Shown piece by piece: positions 13,544-29,170 of a stretch of DNA of 32,000 nucleotides; the stretch's first letter is position 1, and each line of letters starts with the position of its first letter. Origin of the DNA: an uncultured archaeon (lineage in GTDB: Archaea; Asgardarchaeota; Thorarchaeia; Thorarchaeales; Thorarchaeaceae); assembly GCA_964354495.1 (NCBI GenBank), contig CAYHAA010000014.1:39361-71360 (forward strand), read 5' to 3'. Position numbers and translations under genes: made by a program. The notes under the pieces are model-generated. The model worked only from the letters and a program-made list of their open reading frames with translations. It was not told the origin of the DNA and searched no databases.

Positions 13544-14149
13544 ATGACATACGAAGAAAGAGAGCCTATTGAGGCTACAGTGGCTGAATTGAAGCCACGA
13601 ATGAAGAATGTTACCATCACTTTCAAGGTGGTAGAAGCAGGTGAGGTTAGAGAGGTTGCCTCCAGAAATGACGGAGAGAACCACAGAGTTGCTGATGTTA
13701 CAGTAGCTGATTCGACAGGATCTGTCCAAGTTCCACTCTGGGACGATGCAATTGAAAACGTTACACCTGGAAACACATACACACTCAAGAACGGTTACAC
13801 TGGTCTATTCAGAGGTAACCTACGACTCAATGTTGGAAAGTACGGTGAGCTCACAGGAGCTGAGACCCCAATCGAAGAAGTCAACCTTGAGAACGATATG
13901 AGTGCCGAAGAGCACGAAGACGATCGCCCACGCAGAAGCTATGGTGGTGGTGGTGGTCGTGGCGGCAGCGGTGGCGGCGGCTATGGCGGAGATCGACGTG
14001 GCGGCAGCGGCGGCGGCTATGAAGGTGGCGGCGGTGGCGGCGGCGGTGGTTACGGTGGAGACCGACGAGGCGGCGGTGGCGGTGGCGGCTATGGTGGTCG
14101 TGACCGACGAGGCGGTAGTGGCGGATACGGCGGGAGCCGAAGACGCTAA
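13544..14149 (+). CDS. Single OB-fold SSB (Sulfolobus type) with a long Gly/Arg/Tyr-rich tail
   Basis: True start ATG 13544 (MTYEEREPIEATVAELKPRMKNVTITFKV), colinear with the paralogue at 2674. OB fold followed by about 70 aa of G/R/Y/D low-complexity tail. Confidence 0.85.
   Translation: MTYEEREPIEATVAELKPRMKNVTITFKVVEAGEVREVASRNDGENHRVADVTVADSTGSVQVPLWDDAIENVTPGNTYTLKNGYTGLFRGNLRLNVGKYGELTGAETPIEEVNLENDMSAEEHEDDRPRRSYGGGGGRGGSGGGGYGGDRRGGSGGGYEGGGGGGGGGYGGDRRGGGGGGGYGGRDRRGGSGGYGGSRRR
13937..14146 (+). repeat. Coding low-complexity repeat (GGYGG-DRRGG units)
   Basis: Three DRRGG units and six Tyr set in poly-Gly, with varied Gly codons (GGC/GGT/GGA/GGG). Confidence 0.9.
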
Positions 14150-15633: not shown

Positions 15634-15735
15634 GCGACTTCAAGATGCCTGATAGTGACTCTACTGAGGATTCCTCGAGTCGCATTACTCCGTCTACTGG
15701 CACGAATATAATAAAAGTGGCATCTCCTATAGCGA

Positions 15736-17541
15736 ATGAACCTCGAAGAAGACTCGCAACATTTCTTTATCAATAGCCATGCGCATCCATCAGAGCGCGA
15801 GGTGTTGAGGTTGTCCGCCACACTGCAAGACACTGAATGGATACAGAGAGTACTAGACGTTGTCAATGAAGGCATGATAGTCATTCAAGACGAGGACATT
15901 GTGATGGCAAACTCTGCTTTCGCTGATATGCTGGAATATGACAGCAATGAGATCATAGACATCGCCTTCGAGGACCTCGTGGACAAGCTCTCTCGACGAC
16001 ATGACCGTGAGCTTATTGAATCTCTGATTAGTGGTGAGGATTTGTCGAAGTTCTCTACCCGCCTCGCGTCAAAGAACGGTCGCACTCTCCATGTTGAGAT
16101 TACTCCCACACAAGTCACCCTGAAAGGAAATCTGGCGATTCTAGCGAGCATTAGAAACATCTCGAAACAAATAGCATTGGAAGCAGCTGTGACTGAATTG
16201 GAGAACAGATTCGCGTCGCTCTATGATATGTCTCCCGTAGCATATTTCACCTTGAATCGAAATAGCGTGATAGAGCAGGTCAATGCTGCAGCTGAGGAGT
16301 TGCTCAGAACAAATGCTGAAGAGATAATAGGAAAACCTCTTTCTGTCTTCCTCCCAGAGCCAAAGCCTGGTTACAATCCTGGTGCCGACATCACAAGAGA
16401 AGTTCTGCTCGGCAAGAGCGTTAAAGACCTTGAGATGGAGTTTCGTAATAAGGAAGGAAGGAGTCTCTGGGCGAGTGTATCAGCTCGTTCCTTATCGTCC
16501 GACCCAGAGAAGCCAATTGAGATTGCGTTGACTGCTGCAGACATCACCCGTCGGCGAGTCATGGAACAGAATCTTCGCGAGGAGAGAGAAAGGGCGAGTC
16601 TCTACCTGGATGTAATGACAAGCGACCTGAATATGACAAATCAGAACGTTCTCTTCGCCTTGGAGGATCTCAGCATTTCCTTGGACCTTCCTGAGCGACT
16701 GAAGTCGCTCTTGAGCGAGACCGCATGGAGCCTTAGAAATGCTGCACGGATGATAGCCAATATCGGCGTTTTGATATCTCTCGACAAGTCGCCTCCTGAG
16801 AAGACTCAGACACGACTTCTTCCTCATTTCAAGAAGGCTGTAAGTGAGGCGTTAAGAGACTTCGAATGGAAATCTCTTCAGATATCCTCGAACATCGCAG
16901 ACATCGATTTTGATGTAATAGGACATGCATTCATGTGGTACATATTTTTCAACATCATTCACTACTGTGCAAGTTCTGATACAAGTGAAGAAGTCGTTCT
17001 CAACATTCATGCTGAAATGACGGAAGCAGACGACATGGTTAGAATCGAATTTGAAGATAGAGGGCCGGGTACACCGGATGGCGAGAAGGCACACATATTC
17101 AGAAGAGGGGAAGAGTCTAGGGACCAGCTGGCAGGAAAGGGTCTCAGTCTCACGGTTGTTGAACGATATATCTCACAGCTGGGTGGGAGGATCTGGGTTG
17201 AAGACAGAGTACGAGGCGATTATACTCAGGGATCAAGGTTCATCGTTCTAATCCCTGCTTGGAAGGAAGTACTAGCAGTTCCACAGATCATCTTCTATAA
17301 ATCAGACCACTGCGTCTTCTGCGGGCCAGTTCTTGCCAGCTTGACTGCTGTTCTGACCGAAATGGGTATTGCAACTTATGCAATAAAGACCATCAACGTT
17401 GATGATCCCGCCAGTGAGGTTTCTGAGGGTGACCTGCCTGCTCTGCCAACCATCTATATGGGCCCAGAGCTGCTGTCTGGCTATCTCTCAGAAGATGATC
17501 TTCGAGCTGCTGTCACAAAGATGCTATTCACATCAGGTTGA
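15736..17541 (+). CDS. PAS-PAS histidine-kinase-like protein (degenerate H- and N-box) fused to a C-terminal thioredoxin-fold CxxC domain
   Basis: Two PAS domains. The H-box reads YLDVMTSDLN (His replaced by Ser) and the N-box FNIIHYC. G1 EDRGPG and G2 GKGLSL are present. The tail IIFYKSDHCVFCGPV...INVDD...ALPTI fits a thioredoxin fold. Confidence 0.8.
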   Translation: MNLEEDSQHFFINSHAHPSEREVLRLSATLQDTEWIQRVLDVVNEGMIVIQDEDIVMANSAFADMLEYDSNEIIDIAFEDLVDKLSRRHDRELIESLISGEDLSKFSTRLASKNGRTLHVEITPTQVTLKGNLAILASIRNISKQIALEAAVTELENRFASLYDMSPVAYFTLNRNSVIEQVNAAAEELLRTNAEEIIGKPLSVFLPEPKPGYNPGADITREVLLGKSVKDLEMEFRNKEGRSLWASVSARSLSSDPEKPIEIALTAADITRRRVMEQNLREERERASLYLDVMTSDLNMTNQNVLFALEDLSISLDLPERLKSLLSETAWSLRNAARMIANIGVLISLDKSPPEKTQTRLLPHFKKAVSEALRDFEWKSLQISSNIADIDFDVIGHAFMWYIFFNIIHYCASSDTSEEVVLNIHAEMTEADDMVRIEFEDRGPGTPDGEKAHIFRRGEESRDQLAGKGLSLTVVERYISQLGGRIWVEDRVRGDYTQGSRFIVLIPAWKEVLAVPQIIFYKSDHCVFCGPVLASLTAVLTEMGIATYAIKTINVDDPASEVSEGDLPALPTIYMGPELLSGYLSEDDLRAAVTKMLFTSG

Positions 17542-20126: not shown

Positions 20127-21573
20127 TTACTCAGCATTGAATACCAGAGTCTTGACAACAACCGGAACCACAACATCTTCGATTATGGGAGCGCCAATAT
20201 CAATGAAGTCTCCTTCTCTCAAGGCTATCTCATCAATAGATAGTATTTCGTTCGTTATGCCTGTTTCCCGACGCATGATATTGCCAACACTGTTTCCGAT
20301 ATCGGTGTCAAAGCACATCAGTATTGGTAGATTCTTCGATATTGTCGTTGGAAGTGCCGCGACTACGCCCCTTGCGAACTCTGCCAGATTCTCATAAGAG
20401 GGTCTCACAGCGTCATTGAACGATAGGATCATCCTGTCTTCACCCTCACAGAGATCAAATCTTCGAAGGGCACTTGAAACAGCGCCTTTGATATCCGCAG
20501 CAGATGCCTTTCTCTTGGACGTATACGGTACCAACACGGGGACATTTCTGATAGGGTAGTCGAGTCCCGAAGATAGAAATGTCGTGGACCCGCTGACCTG
20601 GAGGCTGAAACTTCCTGCCCCAATGACAGTTGCTCGAATTCTTTGGTCCGGGTTCTCCACGGGCAATCCGAGTGGACGCGCCTTCTTCGCTATTGACTTG
20701 GCGAGGTCAGTGCCCAGGTCGTTAAAGTACTCCTTTTCTGATTTATAGATATATTCAGCAACTCCACCAGAGAACGTAATGGAATCGACGTGTTCATTCA
20801 CTTGCAGTTGAGGCGTCATCATCAAGAGCTGCGTGCTCTTCAGCATGCTCTTTCCCTGCAGTGCTTCAATAAGGGCATCCGCTAATTCGTCCGCAATCTT
20901 GCGTCTATCTGCCGCAGCGAATGCCTGCCCGATTTCGAGATTGATGCCTATTAGCGACGCGAGCTTCCTTCCCATCTCCTCCAGCCGAACAATGATGCCA
21001 GACCCATCAGTGGCAACAAGCCGCCCTCCCACATTTATTGCTGCAGTTGCCAGTACTCTCCCATCTTTGCAGACCGCAATTTTGGAGGAGCCACCTCCTA
21101 CATCAACATTCATGATTGTCTTTCCAGTCGACATCGACCTTGCAACCGCTCCGGATCCATGTGCCGCCAAGACCGCTTCAAAATTGGGACCAGCAGTAGC
21201 AGCAACGAATTTGCCGGACTCTCCTGCCAACGCATTCACGATCCACTCTGCATTGTTCTTCTTTGCAGTTTCGCCGGTAACGATGACTGCTCCAGTGTCA
21301 ATATCAGAGATGGCAATCTTGGCTGCGCGATAATCGTCGAGTAAGAGGTCTCTGAGTTTGGAGTAGTCAACGTTCTGTGCATCCTTGAACGGAGTCAGGT
21401 GGATTGGACCCGAGTGAATTATTTCACGGTCGACAATTTCGAATTTCTCGGTAGTTGATTTCGTATTCTTCTCTAATACAATTCTGCTGAACACGATGTG
21501 TGATGTTGAGGATCCTATGTCAATACCAACACTGGTCAGTTCTTTTCGTTGGGTCCTTAGAATTTCTGTCCAC
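20127..21573 (-). CDS. eutA: EutA-like ethanolamine ammonia-lyase reactivating factor (5' end frameshifted or non-canonical start)
   Basis: ELTSVGIDIGSSTSHIVFSR (upstream of the track start), IDTGAVIVTGETAKK, FVAATAGPNFEAVLAAHGSG, NVDVGGGSS, FSGGVAEY, IRATVIGAG and VVPVVVKTLVF are EutA motifs. Confidence 0.82.
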
Positions 21574-21699: not shown

Positions 21700-22215
21700 A
21701 TGGATGTCATAAAAGCAATCAGAGAACGAAGGAGTATTCGAAAATACAAGTCGAAAGAGGTTAGCGAAGAGAGTATAGATATCATTCTTCAAGCTGGTAG
21801 ATGGGCACCATCCGCGTCGAACAAGCAGCCTTGGCATTTCATTGTTGTCCGAGATCCCAACCTCCGAAAAAGACTAGCTGATGCTCATGCCTATGGGAGA
21901 TACATGAAGGAATCACCAGTCGTGATTGTCGTGCTTGGAGATCCACAGAAGCACCCGAGGTACTATCTTGCAGACCCTCACCAAGCCGTTCAAAATATGT
22001 TGCTTGCGGCATACAATCTGGGAATCAGTACGTGCTGGATGGGCGTTCGTGATACAGACATAGAGCCTGCATTCAGAGAGATACTCAACATTCCAGATGA
22101 TCTAAGGGTCATCTGCTCAGTTTCCGTAGGGTATGGTGACGAGGAACGCACTAGTTCACGATACCCCCTTGATGAGATTGTTTCGTGGGAGACCTTCGGG
22201 AATAAATCCAAGTGA
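21700..22215 (+). CDS. Nitroreductase family protein
   Basis: IRERRSIRKY, WAPSASNKQPWHFIVV and QNMLLAAYNLGISTCW. GGTGA SD upstream. Confidence 0.92.
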   Translation: MDVIKAIRERRSIRKYKSKEVSEESIDIILQAGRWAPSASNKQPWHFIVVRDPNLRKRLADAHAYGRYMKESPVVIVVLGDPQKHPRYYLADPHQAVQNMLLAAYNLGISTCWMGVRDTDIEPAFREILNIPDDLRVICSVSVGYGDEERTSSRYPLDEIVSWETFGNKSK

Positions 22216-22221
22216 CCTACT

Positions 22222-22629
22222 ATGCCCGCATCTAAGGATCTGGATTTCCTGCTTGCAAATATGACTCCCGAGATTATTCTAGGAGAGTATGTCTTCACAA
22301 CTGTTGATGAACACACTCTTCAAGAGCTCAGTGACAGCCCAGTACTTGTATTCCGTGAGAGCGAGGGTGTCACCGTGATTCTAAGAAAGGAGGTGGCTGA
22401 TGCCAAGGCTCTCCTCTACGAAGAGGTGTGGGGTCTCATAACTCTCTCTGTTCATTCGTCGCTGTCCGCAATAGGATTTCTCGCCGCTGTGACGAGGGAG
22501 CTAGCAAAGGCATCAATCAGTGTGAATGCTGTGTCTGCAGTCTATCATGATCATCTATTCGTTCCCCTGGATCGAGTCCGCGAAGCAATGACCGTACTGC
22601 GCGACTTGTCAAGTACTAGACGGAAATGA
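22222..22629 (+). CDS. Tandem ACT-domain protein (DUF2241/ACT_7, CASTOR-related)
   Basis: FRESEGVTVIL, ITLSVHSSLSAIGFLAAV and ISVNAVSAVYHDHLFVP. Confidence 0.85.
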   Translation: MPASKDLDFLLANMTPEIILGEYVFTTVDEHTLQELSDSPVLVFRESEGVTVILRKEVADAKALLYEEVWGLITLSVHSSLSAIGFLAAVTRELAKASISVNAVSAVYHDHLFVPLDRVREAMTVLRDLSSTRRK

Positions 22630-23107
22630 TGACCTCTTTTGATCTCTTGCCACTCATGTAGTCAATGTCGATTCGTCCAATGTTGATGCGTTTCAGCGAC
22701 TTTGCTGTAATCTGAGTTTCGATTACCTTCTCGGGGTTCGGTTCAAGCTGATGAATCATGACCTGGAGCGCGTGTTTCTTTTCTGCCGCATTCTTGATGA
22801 AGCTTACCGTGCCCCTAAACTGCGTTGTAGCCCAGAGGTGATCACAGGCACCTTCAACGTAGCCCTTGTCATCGATAGCCTGCCCCCATACCGTATTATT
22901 TTGGTTGAGAATGTCAATCTTCTTTCCTTCGTGAGCGCAGTGGAAATAGATGCAATGTTTTTCTCGGTCGAATCCGTGGCTCAGCGTCACTAGATACGGT
23001 TCATTATTTTGGCACATTGCAATAGTCACATATTTTGCTCTTTCAAGAATCGTCATCATTTCCTCGTCGCTTTCAATCGCCTTCTCTTTTCTTCGAATTC
23101 CTCTCAT
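22616..23107 (-). CDS. Pyridoxamine 5'-phosphate oxidase-like flavin-binding protein (NimA-like)
   Basis: MRGIRRKEK, PYLVTLSHG, IYFHCAHEGKKIDIL and GRIDIDYMSGK. Confidence 0.85.
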   Translation of the reverse strand: MRGIRRKEKAIESDEEMMTILERAKYVTIAMCQNNEPYLVTLSHGFDREKHCIYFHCAHEGKKIDILNQNNTVWGQAIDDKGYVEGACDHLWATTQFRGTVSFIKNAAEKKHALQVMIHQLEPNPEKVIETQITAKSLKRINIGRIDIDYMSGKRSKEVIISV

Positions 23108-23142
23108 TGTACCACTCTCCATCAACTCGACAGCATCCTCTG

Positions 23143-24008: not shown

Positions 24009-24956
24009 ATGGTCACTCTCGCTGATGTCCGTGCAGCAAGTAATAGAATCCAAGGTGCTGTGCTGAAGACCCCTGTTATGACATCAACGACAATTGATAA
24101 GTTGTCAGGAGGCAGCGTCTTCTTCAAGTGCGAAAATTTCCAGCGCGCCGGAGCTTTCAAGTTCAGGGGCGCGTTTAATGCAATCAGCCAGCTGACCCCC
24201 GAGGAACGCCAGAGGGGTGTTATTGCTCATTCCTCCGGCAATCACGCTCAGGCTCTTGCACTGGCAGCATCGATGCTCGGTGTGAAAGCAACGGCCGTCA
24301 TGCCAAAGAACTCCTCGCAGGTGAAAGTCAATGCAACGCGAGGTTATGGTGCCGAGGTTGTCTTTTGCGAGAACACCGTAGAGAGCAGAGCATCTGTGTG
24401 TGATTCTCTCGCCAAACAGCATGGCTACACCCTTATTCATCCCTACAATGACCCTCGAGTTATTGCAGGAGCCGGCACAGCAGCGCTCGAACTCATCGAA
24501 GAGGTTGGCTGCTTGGACTATGTCTTTGCCCCTGTCGGAGGCGGCGGATTCCTGAGTGGCACTTCGATCGCAGCCAAGGGCCTCTCTCCTACCATAGAGG
24601 TGATTGCAGTCGAACCTGCAAATGCAGATGATGCCTATCGTTCCTTCAGGGCAGGGAAGATACTTCCTAGCGTGAATCCTCACACAATAGCTGATGGTCT
24701 GAGGACCCAACTGGGAGATCTCACATTCGCGGTGATTCAGAAGAACGTGAATGATATCATCACCGTGACAGAGGAGGAAATCGTTAGTGCAATGAGATTT
24801 CTCTGGGAACGCATGAAGCTCGTAGTTGAACCATCTGGTGCAGTCTCTCTGGCTGGACTACTAAAGCAGAAGAGCAGAATGAAACACAGACGTGCTGGCG
24901 TGATGATAAGTGGGGGTAATATCGACCTCACAAGTTACTTCGATACGCTTCTATGA
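24009..24956 (+). CDS. PLP-dependent serine/threonine dehydratase (serine racemase-like), catalytic domain only
   Basis: KCENFQRAGAFKFRGA (PLP Lys), SSGNHAQ, PVGGGG, EPSGA and SGGNID. Confidence 0.92.
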   Translation: MVTLADVRAASNRIQGAVLKTPVMTSTTIDKLSGGSVFFKCENFQRAGAFKFRGAFNAISQLTPEERQRGVIAHSSGNHAQALALAASMLGVKATAVMPKNSSQVKVNATRGYGAEVVFCENTVESRASVCDSLAKQHGYTLIHPYNDPRVIAGAGTAALELIEEVGCLDYVFAPVGGGGFLSGTSIAAKGLSPTIEVIAVEPANADDAYRSFRAGKILPSVNPHTIADGLRTQLGDLTFAVIQKNVNDIITVTEEEIVSAMRFLWERMKLVVEPSGAVSLAGLLKQKSRMKHRRAGVMISGGNIDLTSYFDTLL

Positions 24957-27239
24957 CACGATTTCTGGCTTCTTTGTTCTTGGCAGCCATACAGAGAACT
25001 CTGCCCCTTCATAGGGGTGTCCTTGCACTCGGTCTCGAACCTCAATTCGGCCTCCGTACTTGTCACAAATCTGTTTCGATTGCAGGAGACCCACGCCCCC
25101 ATATCGCCTGGATACATCAAAGATAGCGCTCTTCAGTGATTCTGAGATTCCATCGCCATTGTCAGAGATACAGACCTCATAGCCATCCCCATTCCTAAAC
25201 AGCTTGACCCATACCTTTCTCTCTGCTTTTGGATTGTGCTCAATTGCATTCTCGATGAGGTTGGTCAGCAATTGCTCCAGGAATTCGTCTGCGTCGACAA
25301 TGGCATTCTTGTTTCGTATTGAAACCTCGATCTCAGCATCCTTGTTCTGGGTCCGAAGCGATTCGACGATCTCTTCAACTGTGGAATCCAGTCTTCTTGA
25401 ATAGAGCGGCACTGACATGAGAGGTTCAGTTATCTTCACTTTTGATATCATGCTTTGGCAACGCTCCACTGCCGATACTATCTGCCCCAATAGCCTTCGG
25501 TCGTTGGAGTCCTCTAGTCTCGCTTCCATGACCATGGAACTGCCAAGGATTATCTGTAGTTGGTTTCTGAAATCGTGAGACATTAGATCAAGATACATGC
25601 TGGCTCGCTCTTTCTGGCTTTGTATGTGTTTCTCGGCAATGTTGCGCGTAGTAACATTCATCGCAACTAGCTGCAAGGCTGGAGCTCCCTCAAACTCCAC
25701 GCGTCTCCCGAACATCTCAAGGAATTGTGTACTTCCGTCCTTATGGAAGGCCCGCATCACTATCGGGATGCTCGCTGGTGGCTCTCCTGCCATCAGCTTT
25801 TGGAGCCTGTCCATAAGAATGCTCCAGTCCTCAGGATGGATCTTCTTCTGAATCTCTCCTGCTGTCAGAGCAAGTACTTCCTCAACGGTCAAGCCTAGGA
25901 AACCTGCAAAAGCCGGATTGGCAAACTTCACCGCTAGTGGCAATGCTTGAATGATTGCGATTCCCTGAAATGATTGTTCGACCAGTGTTCTGTATTTGAG
26001 CTCTGAGGCAATCAAGGCCTGCTCTGCCCGCTTTCTTTCCTCAATGTTGCGGACCACCCCGAGCACACCTGTCGGTTTGCCGTTTTCATCACGTAAGAAC
26101 GTGCGTGTGGTTTCTACCTGAATCGTTGAGCCATTCATGTGCCTGAGTCTGAGTTCAATAGGCGGTGAGTCACCTCTGGTCAGTGTTTGGTCCGACATCT
26201 TTTCCGCTTCAAGTGCCTCACTCATGGCTTGGATTGCTGTCCATACAGAATCAGGTGTCATAAGTTCAATCATGGATTTGCCAATCAGTTCATCTGCGGT
26301 GTGCCCAGTTAGTAGCTTCACGGATGTGCTAACGTATGTGAGATTCAGTTCCAAGTCTGTAGTGAAAATCACGTCGGTTACATTCTCGGCCAGCAGTTGG
26401 TATCGTTTCTCACTATCCTGAAGAGCTGCTTCTGTGGCTCTGTGCCCTGTCTTCTCTGTGATTTGACTCAAGTATCCCTTGAGTTCGCCATTGTTCTTGG
26501 ATCTTAACGGAATCACCGATGCATCGAGAATCATAGTGCCTGACCGAGAAGTCCTGTAGAGTCCCTTCTCTTTCACCTTGTCAAAATCGAAGACAACTTC
26601 GTACTTCACAGGTTCTCCACGAATCAGTTTTGCCCTGATTTCCGCTGGGATATTCGGGTCGTCAAAAAGACTGAATCCGACAAGCTCCTGTAGGCTTGTT
26701 ATGCCTGCCATTTCTAAAGAGGCGAGGTTAGCTTTGGTAAGTATTCCCTCACTATCGAAGAGCTCAATTGCAACTTGTGACTCTTCGAAGATTCTCCTCA
26801 TTATTTCTGCGTTTTCTTCTAGGGCTTCACGAGATCTCTTTAATTCTGTGATGTCGGTTATGACAGCAAAGGAACCCTTGTGCTGCCCGTTTTCGTCAAC
26901 CAGAGGCGCGCCAGATACGATTGTTGAAATGGTTTCTCCGGAGTTCTTTGTCCAATCGAGTTCATATTGAGTTGCTTTTCCCTTCGCACGTTGACGAATG
27001 ACTTCTCGGAGGATTTTCCTATTTTTCTCATCGAGGAAGTCAGTAATCGCCTTGCCAATCATTTGACTTGCGTTGCATGCAAGCATCTCTGCAAAACGAG
27101 GATTGACATAGGTGAAGATACCCTCATCATTGATGATTCCAAAACCATCATTCATGGACTCGACTAAGACTCTATACTGATAGGCTTCTTCTTGATGTGT
27201 GAGTCCATTTTCGGGACTGCTTCCTGTCTTATCGTCCAT
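24951..27239 (-). CDS. Soluble histidine kinase with four PAS domains
   Basis: Four PAS repeats, H-box YLDLMSHDFRNQLQ, N-box NLIENAIEH, G1 SDNGDGI and G2 GGVGL. Confidence 0.9.
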   Translation of the reverse strand: MDDKTGSSPENGLTHQEEAYQYRVLVESMNDGFGIINDEGIFTYVNPRFAEMLACNASQMIGKAITDFLDEKNRKILREVIRQRAKGKATQYELDWTKNSGETISTIVSGAPLVDENGQHKGSFAVITDITELKRSREALEENAEIMRRIFEESQVAIELFDSEGILTKANLASLEMAGITSLQELVGFSLFDDPNIPAEIRAKLIRGEPVKYEVVFDFDKVKEKGLYRTSRSGTMILDASVIPLRSKNNGELKGYLSQITEKTGHRATEAALQDSEKRYQLLAENVTDVIFTTDLELNLTYVSTSVKLLTGHTADELIGKSMIELMTPDSVWTAIQAMSEALEAEKMSDQTLTRGDSPPIELRLRHMNGSTIQVETTRTFLRDENGKPTGVLGVVRNIEERKRAEQALIASELKYRTLVEQSFQGIAIIQALPLAVKFANPAFAGFLGLTVEEVLALTAGEIQKKIHPEDWSILMDRLQKLMAGEPPASIPIVMRAFHKDGSTQFLEMFGRRVEFEGAPALQLVAMNVTTRNIAEKHIQSQKERASMYLDLMSHDFRNQLQIILGSSMVMEARLEDSNDRRLLGQIVSAVERCQSMISKVKITEPLMSVPLYSRRLDSTVEEIVESLRTQNKDAEIEVSIRNKNAIVDADEFLEQLLTNLIENAIEHNPKAERKVWVKLFRNGDGYEVCISDNGDGISESLKSAIFDVSRRYGGVGLLQSKQICDKYGGRIEVRDRVQGHPYEGAEFSVWLPRTKKPEIVS

Positions 27240-27440
27240 TCTTCTTCGCTCTGAATGCATCGAAAGCCATTCTTTTCTGACGAAAGCAAACCATATAGAA
27301 TTCTCTAGGATGTAGTGGTCTTCCTCAGTAGAACCTGCAATATGTTCGGTTACCTCTCCAAGAGCGAATCATTCAGTTTAGCGAACTGGATGCCTTAGGA
27401 ACTGCTATTGACATGTCTGTCATTGGCGGTGGAGATCCAT

Positions 27441-28546: not shown

Positions 28547-29170
28547 TCATTTCTGAATCAGGATTCCGCTGTCAACATCTGATACTGCTTGCTTCATGCG
28601 TTCGGCAAGCTTTGCTGCGAGTCGCGTAATGCCCTCGATGTAGGCTTTGTCGAATTCGTCCTCTAGAAGTGTGGCATAGCCCATGATGTTATGCAATACT
28701 CCAGTGACATCATGGGACAGTCCATGGATGAACTCGCTGGCGACTTCGACCGGTATCCCTTTTGGAGAGCCTTCGGTTGATACTTGATGTCTGGAGTCAA
28801 TCACCTTTCGTATGATATCGCGAATAGATATCAGCTGTTCTTTGACGTCTGTTCCTTTAAGCACATAGAAGTCAGCGCCTAGATTCAGGGCTCTAATCAC
28901 AACATCCTCTCTAGAATGCGCTGTCCACATAACGAAGCCAATAGTATCGCTGTCACAACGAAGCGCCTCCAAGAGGTCCAAGCCTGTGGCATTTGGCATC
29001 AGATAATCCGCTACTACAACATCGATCTCTTCACTGTCCAAGATCGCAAGGGCCTCTTTCACAGATTTCGCAACCACAAGTTCGATACCCGGATCTGTCT
29101 GTTTGAAGAGTATACTGGCGATGTCAAGCAGTTCCGCATCATCATCGACAAGTAACAATCGAGTATTCAC
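28547..29170 (-). CDS. Response regulator receiver domain with a C-terminal HisKA-like helical pair, no ATPase domain
   Basis: LLLVDDD, VVADYLMP (phospho-Asp), WTAHS and YVLKG, then FIHGLSHDVTGVLHNIMGYATLL. Confidence 0.85.
   Translation of the reverse strand: MNTRLLLVDDDAELLDIASILFKQTDPGIELVVAKSVKEALAILDSEEIDVVVADYLMPNATGLDLLEALRCDSDTIGFVMWTAHSREDVVIRALNLGADFYVLKGTDVKEQLISIRDIIRKVIDSRHQVSTEGSPKGIPVEVASEFIHGLSHDVTGVLHNIMGYATLLEDEFDKAYIEGITRLAAKLAERMKQAVSDVDSGILIQK

Follow-up and report, generated by a model that had tools for sequence, protein, structure and literature searches.

Histidine kinase relatives that signal without phosphorylation (pseudo-histidine kinases) have been documented (PMC4211667; PMC12963549), and among them DivL binds a phosphorylated regulator and modulates an active kinase (PMC4211667). 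A 2018 census of archaeal two-component systems mentions neither kinase-thioredoxin fusions nor kinases without the acceptor His. Literature searches found no paper on a PAS-PAS-DHp-CA-thioredoxin fusion, in agreement with the first-pass annotation of this DNA, which had not recognized the architecture as a characterized one. To our knowledge, two-component signaling in archaea, and in the Asgard archaea particularly, has been the subject of almost no experimental study. The gene described here (called A below) is the open reading frame at 15736..17541 of the window (the whole 32,000-nucleotide stretch of DNA that was analyzed); its product is the His-less member of a Thorarchaeota kinase-thioredoxin family and would give bacterial pseudokinases such as DivL a counterpart in the archaea. 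Public records label these proteins merely "PAS domain S-box protein" or "sensor histidine kinase"; for the His-less clade a kinase annotation is unwarranted, and the tail domain merits a family model of its own.

Gene and domain organization

The features of the A gene, in positions of the window, are as follows.

15706..15717, plus strand: TATA-like A/T-rich element aatataataaaa, read from the sequence, about 20-30 nt 5' of the ATG at 15736
15736..17541, plus strand: A gene, encoding a soluble 601-aa PAS-PAS-DHp-CA-thioredoxin-fold protein (ORF call, Pfam, AF2)
15838..16185, plus strand: PAS domain 1, residues ~35-150 (Pfam PAS_8/PAS_9, TIGR00229)
16207..16560, plus strand: PAS domain 2, residues ~158-275 (Pfam PAS_9 at 167-271, E 6.9e-21)
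16561..16791, plus strand: DHp-like helical hairpin, residues 276-352 (AF2 helices 2-40 and 45-76 of the model)
16621..16623, plus strand: Ser296 codon, phospho-acceptor position (gapless alignment to the paralog's His, MTHDLNN versus MTSDLNM)
16792..17262, plus strand: CA (HATPase_c) domain, residues 353-509 (Pfam HATPase_c 406-508, E 6e-13)
16963..16965, plus strand: Tyr410 codon, position of the Mg-binding Asn of the N-box (aligned to the paralog's Asn, NIIHNS)
17263..17538, plus strand: C-terminal thioredoxin/glutaredoxin-like domain, residues 510-601 (AF2, structure and profile searches)
17311..17322, plus strand: CVFC active-site-type motif, C526 and C529 (invariant in orthologs and paralogs)
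17446..17451, plus strand: P571-T572 of LPALPT, the thioredoxin-fold cis-proline position at the start of strand 3 (invariant in 62/62; tail-model strand E63-66)

The two PAS domains and HATPase_c are detected by Pfam in the A protein, and Pfam HisKA is not. The AF2 model of the DHp-CA core (pLDDT 83.8) matches histidine kinases in Foldseek, among them HK853 (6rh0_B, E 1.7e-13), WalK and DivL. No membrane segment was found in the A protein, whose hydropathy maximum corresponds to a folded strand and linker; membrane anchoring was rejected, as this sole hydrophobic maximum lies inside folded strands. The TATA-like element would be compatible with a leaderless archaeal start; the contigs of relatives diverge 5' of position 15744.

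Catalytic residues lost and kept

The first-pass annotation had noticed that A has Ser in place of the H-box His found in an intact kinase of the same window, and this holds in detail: ERASLYLDVMTSDLNM occupies 16588-16635 with Ser296 at 16621-16623, and the kinase used for that comparison, with ERASMYLDLMSHDFRN and NLIENA, is the 769-aa ORF at 24951..27260 on the minus strand. It had also allowed that orthologs might retain His, this copy alone being in decay, and they do not; in an alignment of 62 A orthologs (48-94% identity), position 296 is Ser in 46, Asn in nine, Gln in five, Thr in two and His in none, so the substitution is neither chance nor a sequencing error. Lys and Arg also occur there in other A copies examined. 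A family-wide phospho-Ser site at position 296 was rejected, since Asn, Gln, Lys and Arg are found at it in other genera. There is no alternative acceptor His in the DHp domain of A (no His among residues 276-352), and the Asn or Thr at His+4 is absent as well.

The second reported change, Mg-binding Asn to Tyr in the N-box, is present in A (NIIHYC at 16951-16968) but is not family-wide, as the deeper-branching orthologs keep the Asn. Position 410 is Tyr in 26 orthologs, Asn in 17, Phe in 14 and His in five, and it is Tyr, Phe or His in this genus and its close kin; the Mg-binding Asn was lost later and in a lineage-specific manner, as it was in this genus. The G1 and G2 boxes are kept, as had been stated (D441-x-G-x-G and G467-x-G469-L; D441 in 61 and G469 in all 62 orthologs), and the first N-box Asn (N406), the G1 Asp (D441), the F-box and G2 are all conserved. 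Deep-branching A orthologs retain the full ATP-binding kit (Asn, G1 and G2), and judging from these residues "dead" is perhaps too strong a word for the A clade overall, since deep-branching members may bind or use ATP; they could, for example, act in trans on a partner subunit and phosphorylate its His.

These conserved boxes, the deep-branching orthologs with a Mg-binding Asn and the prevalence of Ser at the acceptor position could also be taken to mean that A is still an enzyme, its CA domain phosphorylating a partner's His in trans, a Ser or Thr, or some other acceptor within the protein. This seems distinctly improbable, given that A and its genus have Tyr, Phe or His where the Mg-binding Asn should be, that the acceptor position can also be Asn, Gln, Lys or Arg, which are not phosphorylatable like Ser, and that the DHp domain is without any His.

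Conservation and expression

The A open reading frame is intact in more than 120 sequence clusters and across at least 11 genera, and 63 residues are invariant over 62 A sequences. The overall dN/dS of A is 0.074 (0.026 for DHp, 0.049 for CA and 0.071 for the thioredoxin domain), equal to the 0.073 of the active paralog described below. Every domain of A, the DHp foremost, is thus under strong purifying selection, and codon and residue conservation together support A as a probable genuine, conserved pseudo-histidine kinase. With two catalytic residues gone and a working paralog present, A might be thought a decaying duplicate, that is, an incipient pseudogene without a function of its own. We give this almost no credence: intact frames across at least 11 genera, a dN/dS of 0.07 that is the same as in the active copy, 63 invariant residues in 62 sequences, and a single ancient loss of the His followed by long retention all speak against it, and the dN/dS, the conservation and the single His loss led us to reject it.

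One 295-nt metatranscriptome contig, 98.6% identical to A, spans 16493-16777 and includes the Ser codon; its library may contain DNA, and the match is a weak hint that A is expressed. In the runs used the remainder of A is without RNA cover, which speaks neither for nor against expression.

The immediate neighbors of A vary between genera. In this genus an MFS-type transporter lies upstream, and in one other genus that position is taken by a 436-aa ORF without a domain match. At three distant ortholog loci and one close one there is neither a common partner nor a response regulator next to the gene. Receiver proteins are encoded in the region of A, for example at 28547-29170. An operon-based function for A was rejected, there being no conserved neighbors.

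The thioredoxin-fold tail

The C-terminal tail was predicted in the first-pass annotation to model as a thioredoxin fold, and it does so (beta-alpha-beta-beta-beta-alpha, AF2 pLDDT 89.8). In a structure search with this model, solved thioredoxins occupy the top 26 rows, their Z reaching 10.0 and their TMq 0.71. C526 and C529 lie directly before a helix (H20-33 of the tail model) and P571 directly before a strand (E63-66); the latter is called the cis-Pro from its position in the tail and not from its conformation. The CVFC and cis-Pro-type motifs that had been pointed out are borne out by the orthologs, where C526, C529, P571 and T572 are invariant (62/62), as are residues flanking the CVFC, namely K522, S523 and H525 before it and P531 after it (62/62). 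The CxxC is likewise conserved in 115/115 paralogs and 9/9 further family representatives, and the CxxC and cis-Pro are invariant across the 186 kinase-thioredoxin family members examined. Thus, of the two features whose conservation was in question, the CxxC is invariant (62/62) and Ser is found at 296 in only 46/62.

Curated family models scarcely see this ~90-aa segment; the best Pfam model, Glrx-like, reaches E 0.099 and scores 13.4 bits, below its cut-off of 26, and NCBIfam gives no match. A profile of the tail finds thioredoxin 6mos (E 9e-4) and MJ0307 (1fo5; E 0.05) in the PDB, and just 90 representatives match it among 1.84 billion proteins. Stand-alone relatives of ~110 aa are encoded in the same genomes. 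The model and these searches support the assignment of the tail as a predicted thioredoxin-fold domain with a redox-type CxxC and cis-Pro.

It had been suggested that the output of the tail might be KaiB-like, and the structure does match the SasA N-terminal domain (1t4z, Z 8.8) and KaiB (4kun, Z 8.4), so that the tail could be an adaptor, a protein-binding module without redox chemistry. However, thioredoxins lead both structure searches: 26 thioredoxin-containing entries rank higher (top Z 10.0, with KaiB and SasA-N within ~1.6 Z of it), and no KaiB appears among the 50 best Foldseek matches. An invariant CxxC and cis-Pro, which KaiB and the SasA N-domain are not known to have, argue for the redox-type subfamily. 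A scan of the window's genes, and of those at the retrieved ortholog and paralog loci, found no KaiC-like family. The KaiB-like reading is thus disfavored, and the adaptor role as a whole looks highly improbable.

An active paralog and the history of the family

A second gene of the same architecture (B) is present in this genome at C14:73865-75583, ~18 kb downstream of A and just beyond the window. Its product is 38% identical to A over the full length, and it has the His, the Asn and the CxxC. In group B as a whole the His, the Mg-binding Asn and the CxxC are each present in 115/115. B has two more Cys, one in an "IC" that follows the cis-Pro and one in a CYPD at the C terminus, and hence four conserved Cys; this second pair is lost in 60/62 A orthologs. 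Groups A and B share 137 alignment columns in which each is conserved and both have the same residue; the DHp accounts for 22 of these, and only four DHp columns are class-specific.

In the family tree the His-less sequences form one clade (support 1.0) that lies within the active, His-containing family, the successive His-containing sisters of that clade being P0126 and then P0330/P0331 (support 0.994 and 0.991). The tree shows a single loss of the phospho-acceptor His in lineage A, from an ancestral, catalytically complete B lineage, and, on the same comparisons, a later loss of the second Cys pair of the thioredoxin domain. Since the same domain is on the complete kinase paralog and the His-less clade is nested within that family, the thioredoxin fusion is older than the loss of the His, and the tail is therefore likelier to provide an input, from thiols or metal, than to be a replacement output. 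The earlier proposal of a thiol-redox output is not supported in the sense of one that took the place of a dead kinase, as the same tail is on the fully equipped B and the fusion precedes the His loss; a regulatory or input module common to A and B is the better reading of the thioredoxin domain.

The fusion is found in 67/76 genomes of one Thorarchaeota family and in 0/224 sampled genomes of other Asgard families. Among 24 high-quality genomes of the class, 14 have both copies, eight have the His copy only, none has the His-less copy only and two have neither (the H-box was read from sequence in every fetched copy except the masked second copy in genome G076). Roughly 60 genomes in all carry both copies. 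The distance between A and B is 17-20 kb, on a single contig, in nine genomes (eight of this genus, one of another) and 24-109 kb elsewhere. In four genera B lies divergently beside, and adjoins, an ArsR/SmtB metalloregulator gene and a heavy-metal P1B-type ATPase gene (TIGR01525, E 4e-167).

There are two further interpretations of the tail. In the first, which is the thiol-redox output of the first-pass annotation, A would be a signal-regulated redoxin, its kinase-like core acting as scaffold or switch, PAS input exposing or hiding the CxxC, and the output being thiol-disulfide exchange on a target. The invariance of the CxxC, the preceding K-S-x-H and the cis-Pro, the match of fold and motif to active small thioredoxins, and the related stand-alone ~110-aa proteins of the same genomes all fit such a protein, but the ancestral lineage carries the same domain on a complete kinase, so it is no substitute output; furthermore, no domain is more constrained than the DHp (dN/dS 0.026), which is unexpected for a mere scaffold, and neither a thioredoxin reductase gene nor an obvious substrate gene is linked in the window and ortholog loci scanned. 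We consider it unlikely.

In the second, the H-C-x-x-C would bind a soft metal (Zn, Cd or Cu) with no disulfide cycling, and the paralog pair would report metal stress. The ArsR/SmtB and P1B-type ATPase genes beside B in four genera, the four conserved Cys of B and the invariant His525 beside the CxxC point in this direction. By itself, however, neighborhood is weak evidence, and A lies away from the metal operon and is without the second Cys pair, like most of its orthologs (60/62). In the usual thioredoxin-fold geometry the CxxC and the second Cys pair should lie at opposite ends of the domain, and such pairs would not make one Cys4 site. A dedicated metal sensor is in our estimate quite unlikely.

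Proposed mechanism

The interpretation that we favor, and would put at slightly better than an even chance, is that A is a cytoplasmic pseudo-histidine kinase that senses through its PAS domains and CxxC and alters the activity of a partner, most likely its paralog B. The A protein should be unable to autophosphorylate, and in this genus probably does not hydrolyze ATP either. It would still sense through the two PAS domains and the thiol state of the CxxC (disulfide or dithiol, or possibly metal occupancy), and the sensed state would be relayed as a conformational change of the DHp/CA core that alters the activity of the partner. The likeliest such partner is the active paralog B, either in a mixed dimer or through competition for the same response regulator, and the action of A would then resemble that of DivL in Caulobacter. 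The co-occurrence of A with B and the DHp surface that they share lend this indirect support, and B is a concrete candidate partner for the heterodimer with active kinases that the first-pass annotation had proposed.

A more elaborate version, conceivable but doubtful, is that A and B form mixed dimers in which the thiol or metal state of the two-Cys tail of A and the four-Cys tail of B sets kinase output; A would then be a redox-gated "brake subunit" invented in one Asgard lineage, and the same module on small GTPases in other Asgard groups would be a general redox plug-in for signaling proteins. The family is in any case a natural experiment, in which active and disabled copies are both conserved and, in this genus, genetically linked. 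If the thioredoxin tail gates the kinase core, thiol or metal stress would be tied directly to phosphorelay signaling.

Comparison with known systems

The canonical HisKA kinases (HK853, WalK and CpxA) have in common with A the DHp hairpin, the CA fold, the G1 and G2 boxes and the F-box; A differs from them in lacking the acceptor His, the Asn or Thr at His+4 and, in this genus, the Mg-binding Asn. The closest relatives of the tail are the small archaeal thioredoxins (MJ0307, 1fo5), the NrdH-redoxins (1h75 and 4hs1) and the Pfam families Thioredoxin_3 and Glrx-like. Like the small thioredoxins it has a minimal fold of ~85 aa, with the CxxC at the start of helix 1, the cis-Pro before strand 3 and a G-[FY] motif before the last helix; its profile matches 1fo5 over the whole length (E 0.05), and its Z to NrdH is 8.4. 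It differs from them in lying below every curated family threshold, in the hydrophobic dipeptide of its CVFC and in being fused to a signaling protein.

The cyanobacterial SasA, like A, combines a thioredoxin-fold domain with a histidine-kinase core (1t4z, Z 8.8), but that domain is N-terminal in SasA and C-terminal in A. The SasA N-domain, which binds KaiC, is not known to have a CxxC, and SasA itself is an active kinase. The B paralogs are nearer, with the same domain order, CxxC, cis-Pro and taxonomic range as A; they differ from it in the His, the Mg-binding Asn, the second Cys pair and the ArsR and heavy-metal ATPase operon alongside.

The best parallel for the kinase-like part is DivL of Caulobacter crescentus (4q20, one of the structures that the DHp-CA core of A matches); both proteins have multiple PAS domains and a DHp-CA core in which the acceptor His is replaced, and both are conserved. 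PsmA of Streptomyces is a further bacterial pseudo-histidine kinase to which A can be likened. The His position is Tyr in DivL and Ser, Asn, Gln, Thr, Lys or Arg in the A clade. DivL is presumably without a thioredoxin domain. Unlike DivL, A is archaeal and shares its genome with an active paralog of identical architecture.

Gene A and its orthologs

Gene A encodes a protein with two PAS domains, a dimerization hairpin (DHp), an ATP-binding kinase domain (CA, HATPase_c) and a C-terminal tail (residues 510-601). Its main features, and the kinase with which a first-pass annotation compared it, are as follows:

15736-17541, + strand: gene A ORF, 601 residues
residues about 35-150: PAS domain 1 (Pfam and NCBIfam)
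residues about 158-275: PAS domain 2 (Pfam and NCBIfam)
residues 406-508: HATPase_c domain (E 6e-13)
16588-16635: H-box-region motif ERASLYLDVMTSDLNM; the Ser296 codon is 16621-16623
16951-16968: NIIHYC motif; the Tyr410 codon is 16963-16965
17311-17322: CVFC motif
24951-27260, − strand: comparison kinase, a 769-aa ORF with PAS, HisKA and HATPase_c

The three motifs that the annotation quoted are all present at these positions. Pfam and NCBIfam scans of the protein found no HisKA domain and no match for the last 90 residues; A lacks membrane segments, and its only cysteines are residues 411, 526 and 529. A TATA-like A/T-rich element lies at 15706-15717, 20-30 nt upstream of the ATG. Many orthologs are annotated about 25 residues shorter, but similarity between the relatives' contigs and the window breaks off upstream of 15744, so the annotated start is plausible. 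Residues 276-601 were modeled (pLDDT 83.8) with a DHp hairpin and a CA domain that resemble those of HK853, WalK, CpxA and the pseudokinase DivL in a structure search.

A protein search found more than 120 clusters of A relatives (49-94% identity, about 576 aa), and nearly all that carry names are "Candidatus Thorarchaeota". In an alignment of 62 of these clusters the phospho-acceptor position is Ser in 46, Asn in nine, Gln in five and Thr in two, and never His; genomic copies from further genera also have Lys or Arg there, and the DHp of the A protein has no His at any other position. The Mg-binding Asn position is occupied by Tyr (26), Asn (17), Phe (14) or His (5), with Asn retained in orthologs less than about 55% identical to A. 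Thus A lacks the acceptor His and, in the window's genus, the Mg-binding Asn as well. The Asn to Tyr change reported by the first-pass annotation is true of the A protein but not general among orthologs, and of the two features whose conservation it proposed to check, CxxC is invariant while Ser296 is only the commonest of several replacements for His. Other ATP-site features are kept: the first N-box Asn in 60 of 62, the G1 Asp in 61 of 62, the G2 glycine G469 in all 62, and also the F-box. Residual trans-kinase activity is improbable overall; it is more plausible in the deep orthologs that retain the Asn than in the A protein.

Between the window genome and a congener the pairwise dN/dS of A is 0.074 (PAS 0.084, DHp 0.026, CA 0.049, thioredoxin domain 0.071), so every domain is strongly constrained, the DHp most of all. 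The active paralog B (below) gives 0.073 for the same genome pair. With His absent from all 62 orthologs and a dN/dS equal to that of an active kinase, A is a pseudokinase as first proposed, and the chance that it is a decaying copy is negligible. A single metatranscriptome contig, 295 nt long and 98.6% identical, spans 16493-16777, including the Ser codon, and hints weakly at expression.

The thioredoxin-fold tail

The proposed thioredoxin fold was upheld by modeling. AlphaFold2 with a family alignment gave a confident beta-alpha-beta-beta-beta-alpha domain (pLDDT 89.8, pTM 0.81). Foldseek matched it to thioredoxins, NrdH and glutaredoxins in the PDB (E 4e-4 to 3e-3, TMq up to 0.71), and an exhaustive structure aligner placed thioredoxins at the top (Z 10.0), against 8.8 for SasA-N (1t4z) and 8.4 each for a KaiB and NrdH. 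The tail sequence profile matches thioredoxin 6mos (E 9e-4) and aligns over its full length to the small archaeal thioredoxin MJ0307 (1fo5, E 0.05); language-model neighbors fall in the Thioredoxin_3 and Glutaredoxin clusters. K522, S523, H525, C526, F528, C529 and P531 are invariant in the 62 orthologs, as is P571-T572, which occupies the cis-Pro position. By its predicted fold, profile matches and invariant CxxC and cis-Pro, the tail is a thioredoxin-fold domain of the redox type and belongs to a divergent subfamily. A signal-gated redoxin, with the tail as the working part, is a minority reading, though the foremost of the alternatives; a KaiB-like adaptor is very unlikely.

The tail profile matches just 90 of 1.84 billion representative proteins, mainly kinases of about 580 aa with the domain C-terminal and stand-alone proteins of about 105-115 aa. 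The window's genome holds five more thioredoxin-like matches (L003-L007) in open frames of 112-138 aa. Stand-alone relatives in our protein set (about 90-115 aa, including P0144, P0145 and P0155) mostly lack a Pfam match where scanned; some have a single Cys of the CxxC, and many have Cys-rich C-terminal tails. P0124 (156 aa) joins an N-terminal 4Fe-4S ferredoxin domain to an A-type tail (DHCIFCGP...DLPALPTIQMG) with no kinase, and may represent a chimeric gene call or else a genuine recombinant. P0174 (660 aa, from a Logan contig) has a different arrangement from A and B: PAS, Thioredoxin/Glutaredoxin (CVYC, residues 187-246), then a C-terminal HATPase_c. Relatives of the module are also attached to small Ras/Arf-type GTPases, C-terminally in P0190 (Heimdallarchaeota, 282 aa) and N-terminally in P0193 (306 aa); the module may have been added repeatedly to signaling proteins in Asgard archaea.

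A His-containing paralog and the proposed order of events

A tail-profile search of the window's own genome found a second fusion gene on the same contig:

C14:73865-75583 (L002:55-1773), + strand: gene B, about 18 kb downstream of A, some 2.5 kb beyond the end of the window

B has the same PAS-PAS-DHp-CA-thioredoxin layout and is 38% identical to A end to end, and its orthologs are as widespread as those of A. It retains His (MTHDLNN), Asn (NIIHNS) and CVFC, and has a second conserved Cys pair, formed by "IC" after the cis-Pro and the Cys of a C-terminal CYPE/CYPD. The His, Mg-binding Asn, G1 Asp, CxxC and the additional Cys five residues past the cis-Pro are each present in 115 of 115 full-length B sequences; with nine further representatives included, the CYPD Cys is found in 123 of 124 His-containing sequences. 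This pair is gone from 60 of 62 A sequences and the other two keep both cysteines, so the pair probably functions as a unit. In 137 conserved alignment columns A and B have the same residue; 22 of these columns fall in the DHp, which has only four class-specific ones.

In a maximum-likelihood tree of the family, rooted on the window's non-thioredoxin kinase, the His-less sequences are monophyletic (62/62, support 1.0) and nested within the His-containing family. Their successive sisters, P0126 (0.994) and then P0330/P0331 (0.991), retain His; deeper nodes are weakly supported. The thioredoxin domain is thus older than the loss of His, and A has kept its redox-type site. We infer that a four-Cys kinase-thioredoxin fusion arose first and was duplicated, after which one copy would have lost His (once), then the second Cys pair, and finally, in a lineage including the window's genus, the Mg-binding Asn.

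Within the window's GTDB family the profile hits 67 of the 76 other genomes, and within the class 77 of 87, but it hits none of 224 genomes sampled across 29 other families of the phylum; the public names "Lokiarchaeota" and "Hodarchaeota" on a few matches are probably loose labels. The H-box was read from DNA in 51 copies (27 genomes, 16 genera; the second copy of G076 is masked there), and elsewhere A and B were called by score rank alone. In every genome with two fusion genes, His is missing from the one that matches the profile better and present in the other, and all single-copy genomes have His. Among 24 high-quality genomes (completeness at least 90%, contamination at most 5%), 14 carry both copies, eight only the His copy, two neither, and none the His-less copy alone: A co-occurs with B. 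They share a contig, at a distance of 17-20 kb, in eight genomes of the window's genus and in G011, of another genus; in other genera the distance is 24-109 kb.

Gene neighborhoods

No conserved immediate partner of A was present at the ortholog loci compared, and no regulator adjoins it at the window and ortholog loci examined. Upstream lies an MFS-type transporter in the window's genus and, in one other genus, a 436-aa ORF without a domain match. The following block keeps its order downstream of A in other family genomes and looks like regional synteny with no evident functional link:

20127-21494, − strand: EutA-like
21700-22215, + strand: nitroreductase
22616-23125, − strand: pyridoxamine-oxidase-like
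24009-24956, + strand: PALP enzyme
24951-27260, − strand: the 769-aa PAS kinase

An Ssb-like OB-fold protein with a long GGYGG/RGG low-complexity tail (Pfam PF21473) is encoded at 13544-14149 (+).

In four genera B is divergent to and adjoins an ArsR/SmtB metalloregulator and a heavy-metal P1B-type ATPase (TIGR01525, E 4e-167), with an ABC transporter pair beyond; in two of these genera DsrE, DUF5400 and TusA follow downstream. That A is a metal sensor is a slimmer possibility than a redoxin. Between A and B, 28547-29170 (−) encodes a 207-aa protein with a receiver domain followed by an H-box-like helix (LSHDVTG), which could be a cognate regulator or relay of B; two genera (g1 and the P0309 genome) also have a receiver gene of about 200 codons in this region, close to B.

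Possible function and relation to known systems

On balance we somewhat favor A as a non-catalytic signaling subunit that combines PAS with thiol or metal sensing and acts on a partner; the identity of A is near-certain, and the partner is about an even bet. Its inputs would come from its own PAS domains and from the CxxC domain, whose thiol (or metal) state it would sense, and it would act through its DHp/CA surface. The most economical partner would be B or B's response regulator, by analogy with DivL, which acts on DivK and CckA (PMC4211667).

Literature searches found no account of a kinase that ends in a CxxC thioredoxin domain, nor of an active/dead paralog pair built this way, and a 2018 census of archaeal two-component systems mentions neither. 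The hosts are uncultured, and the pair provides a neat evolutionary case and an idea that can be tested, but it is tied to no long-standing open question and would not greatly surprise two-component specialists. Pseudo-histidine kinases such as DivL and PsmA are already known. SasA also carries a thioredoxin-fold domain on a kinase, but at the N-terminus, whereas in A and B it is C-terminal; the SasA domain, which to our knowledge has no CxxC, binds KaiC.
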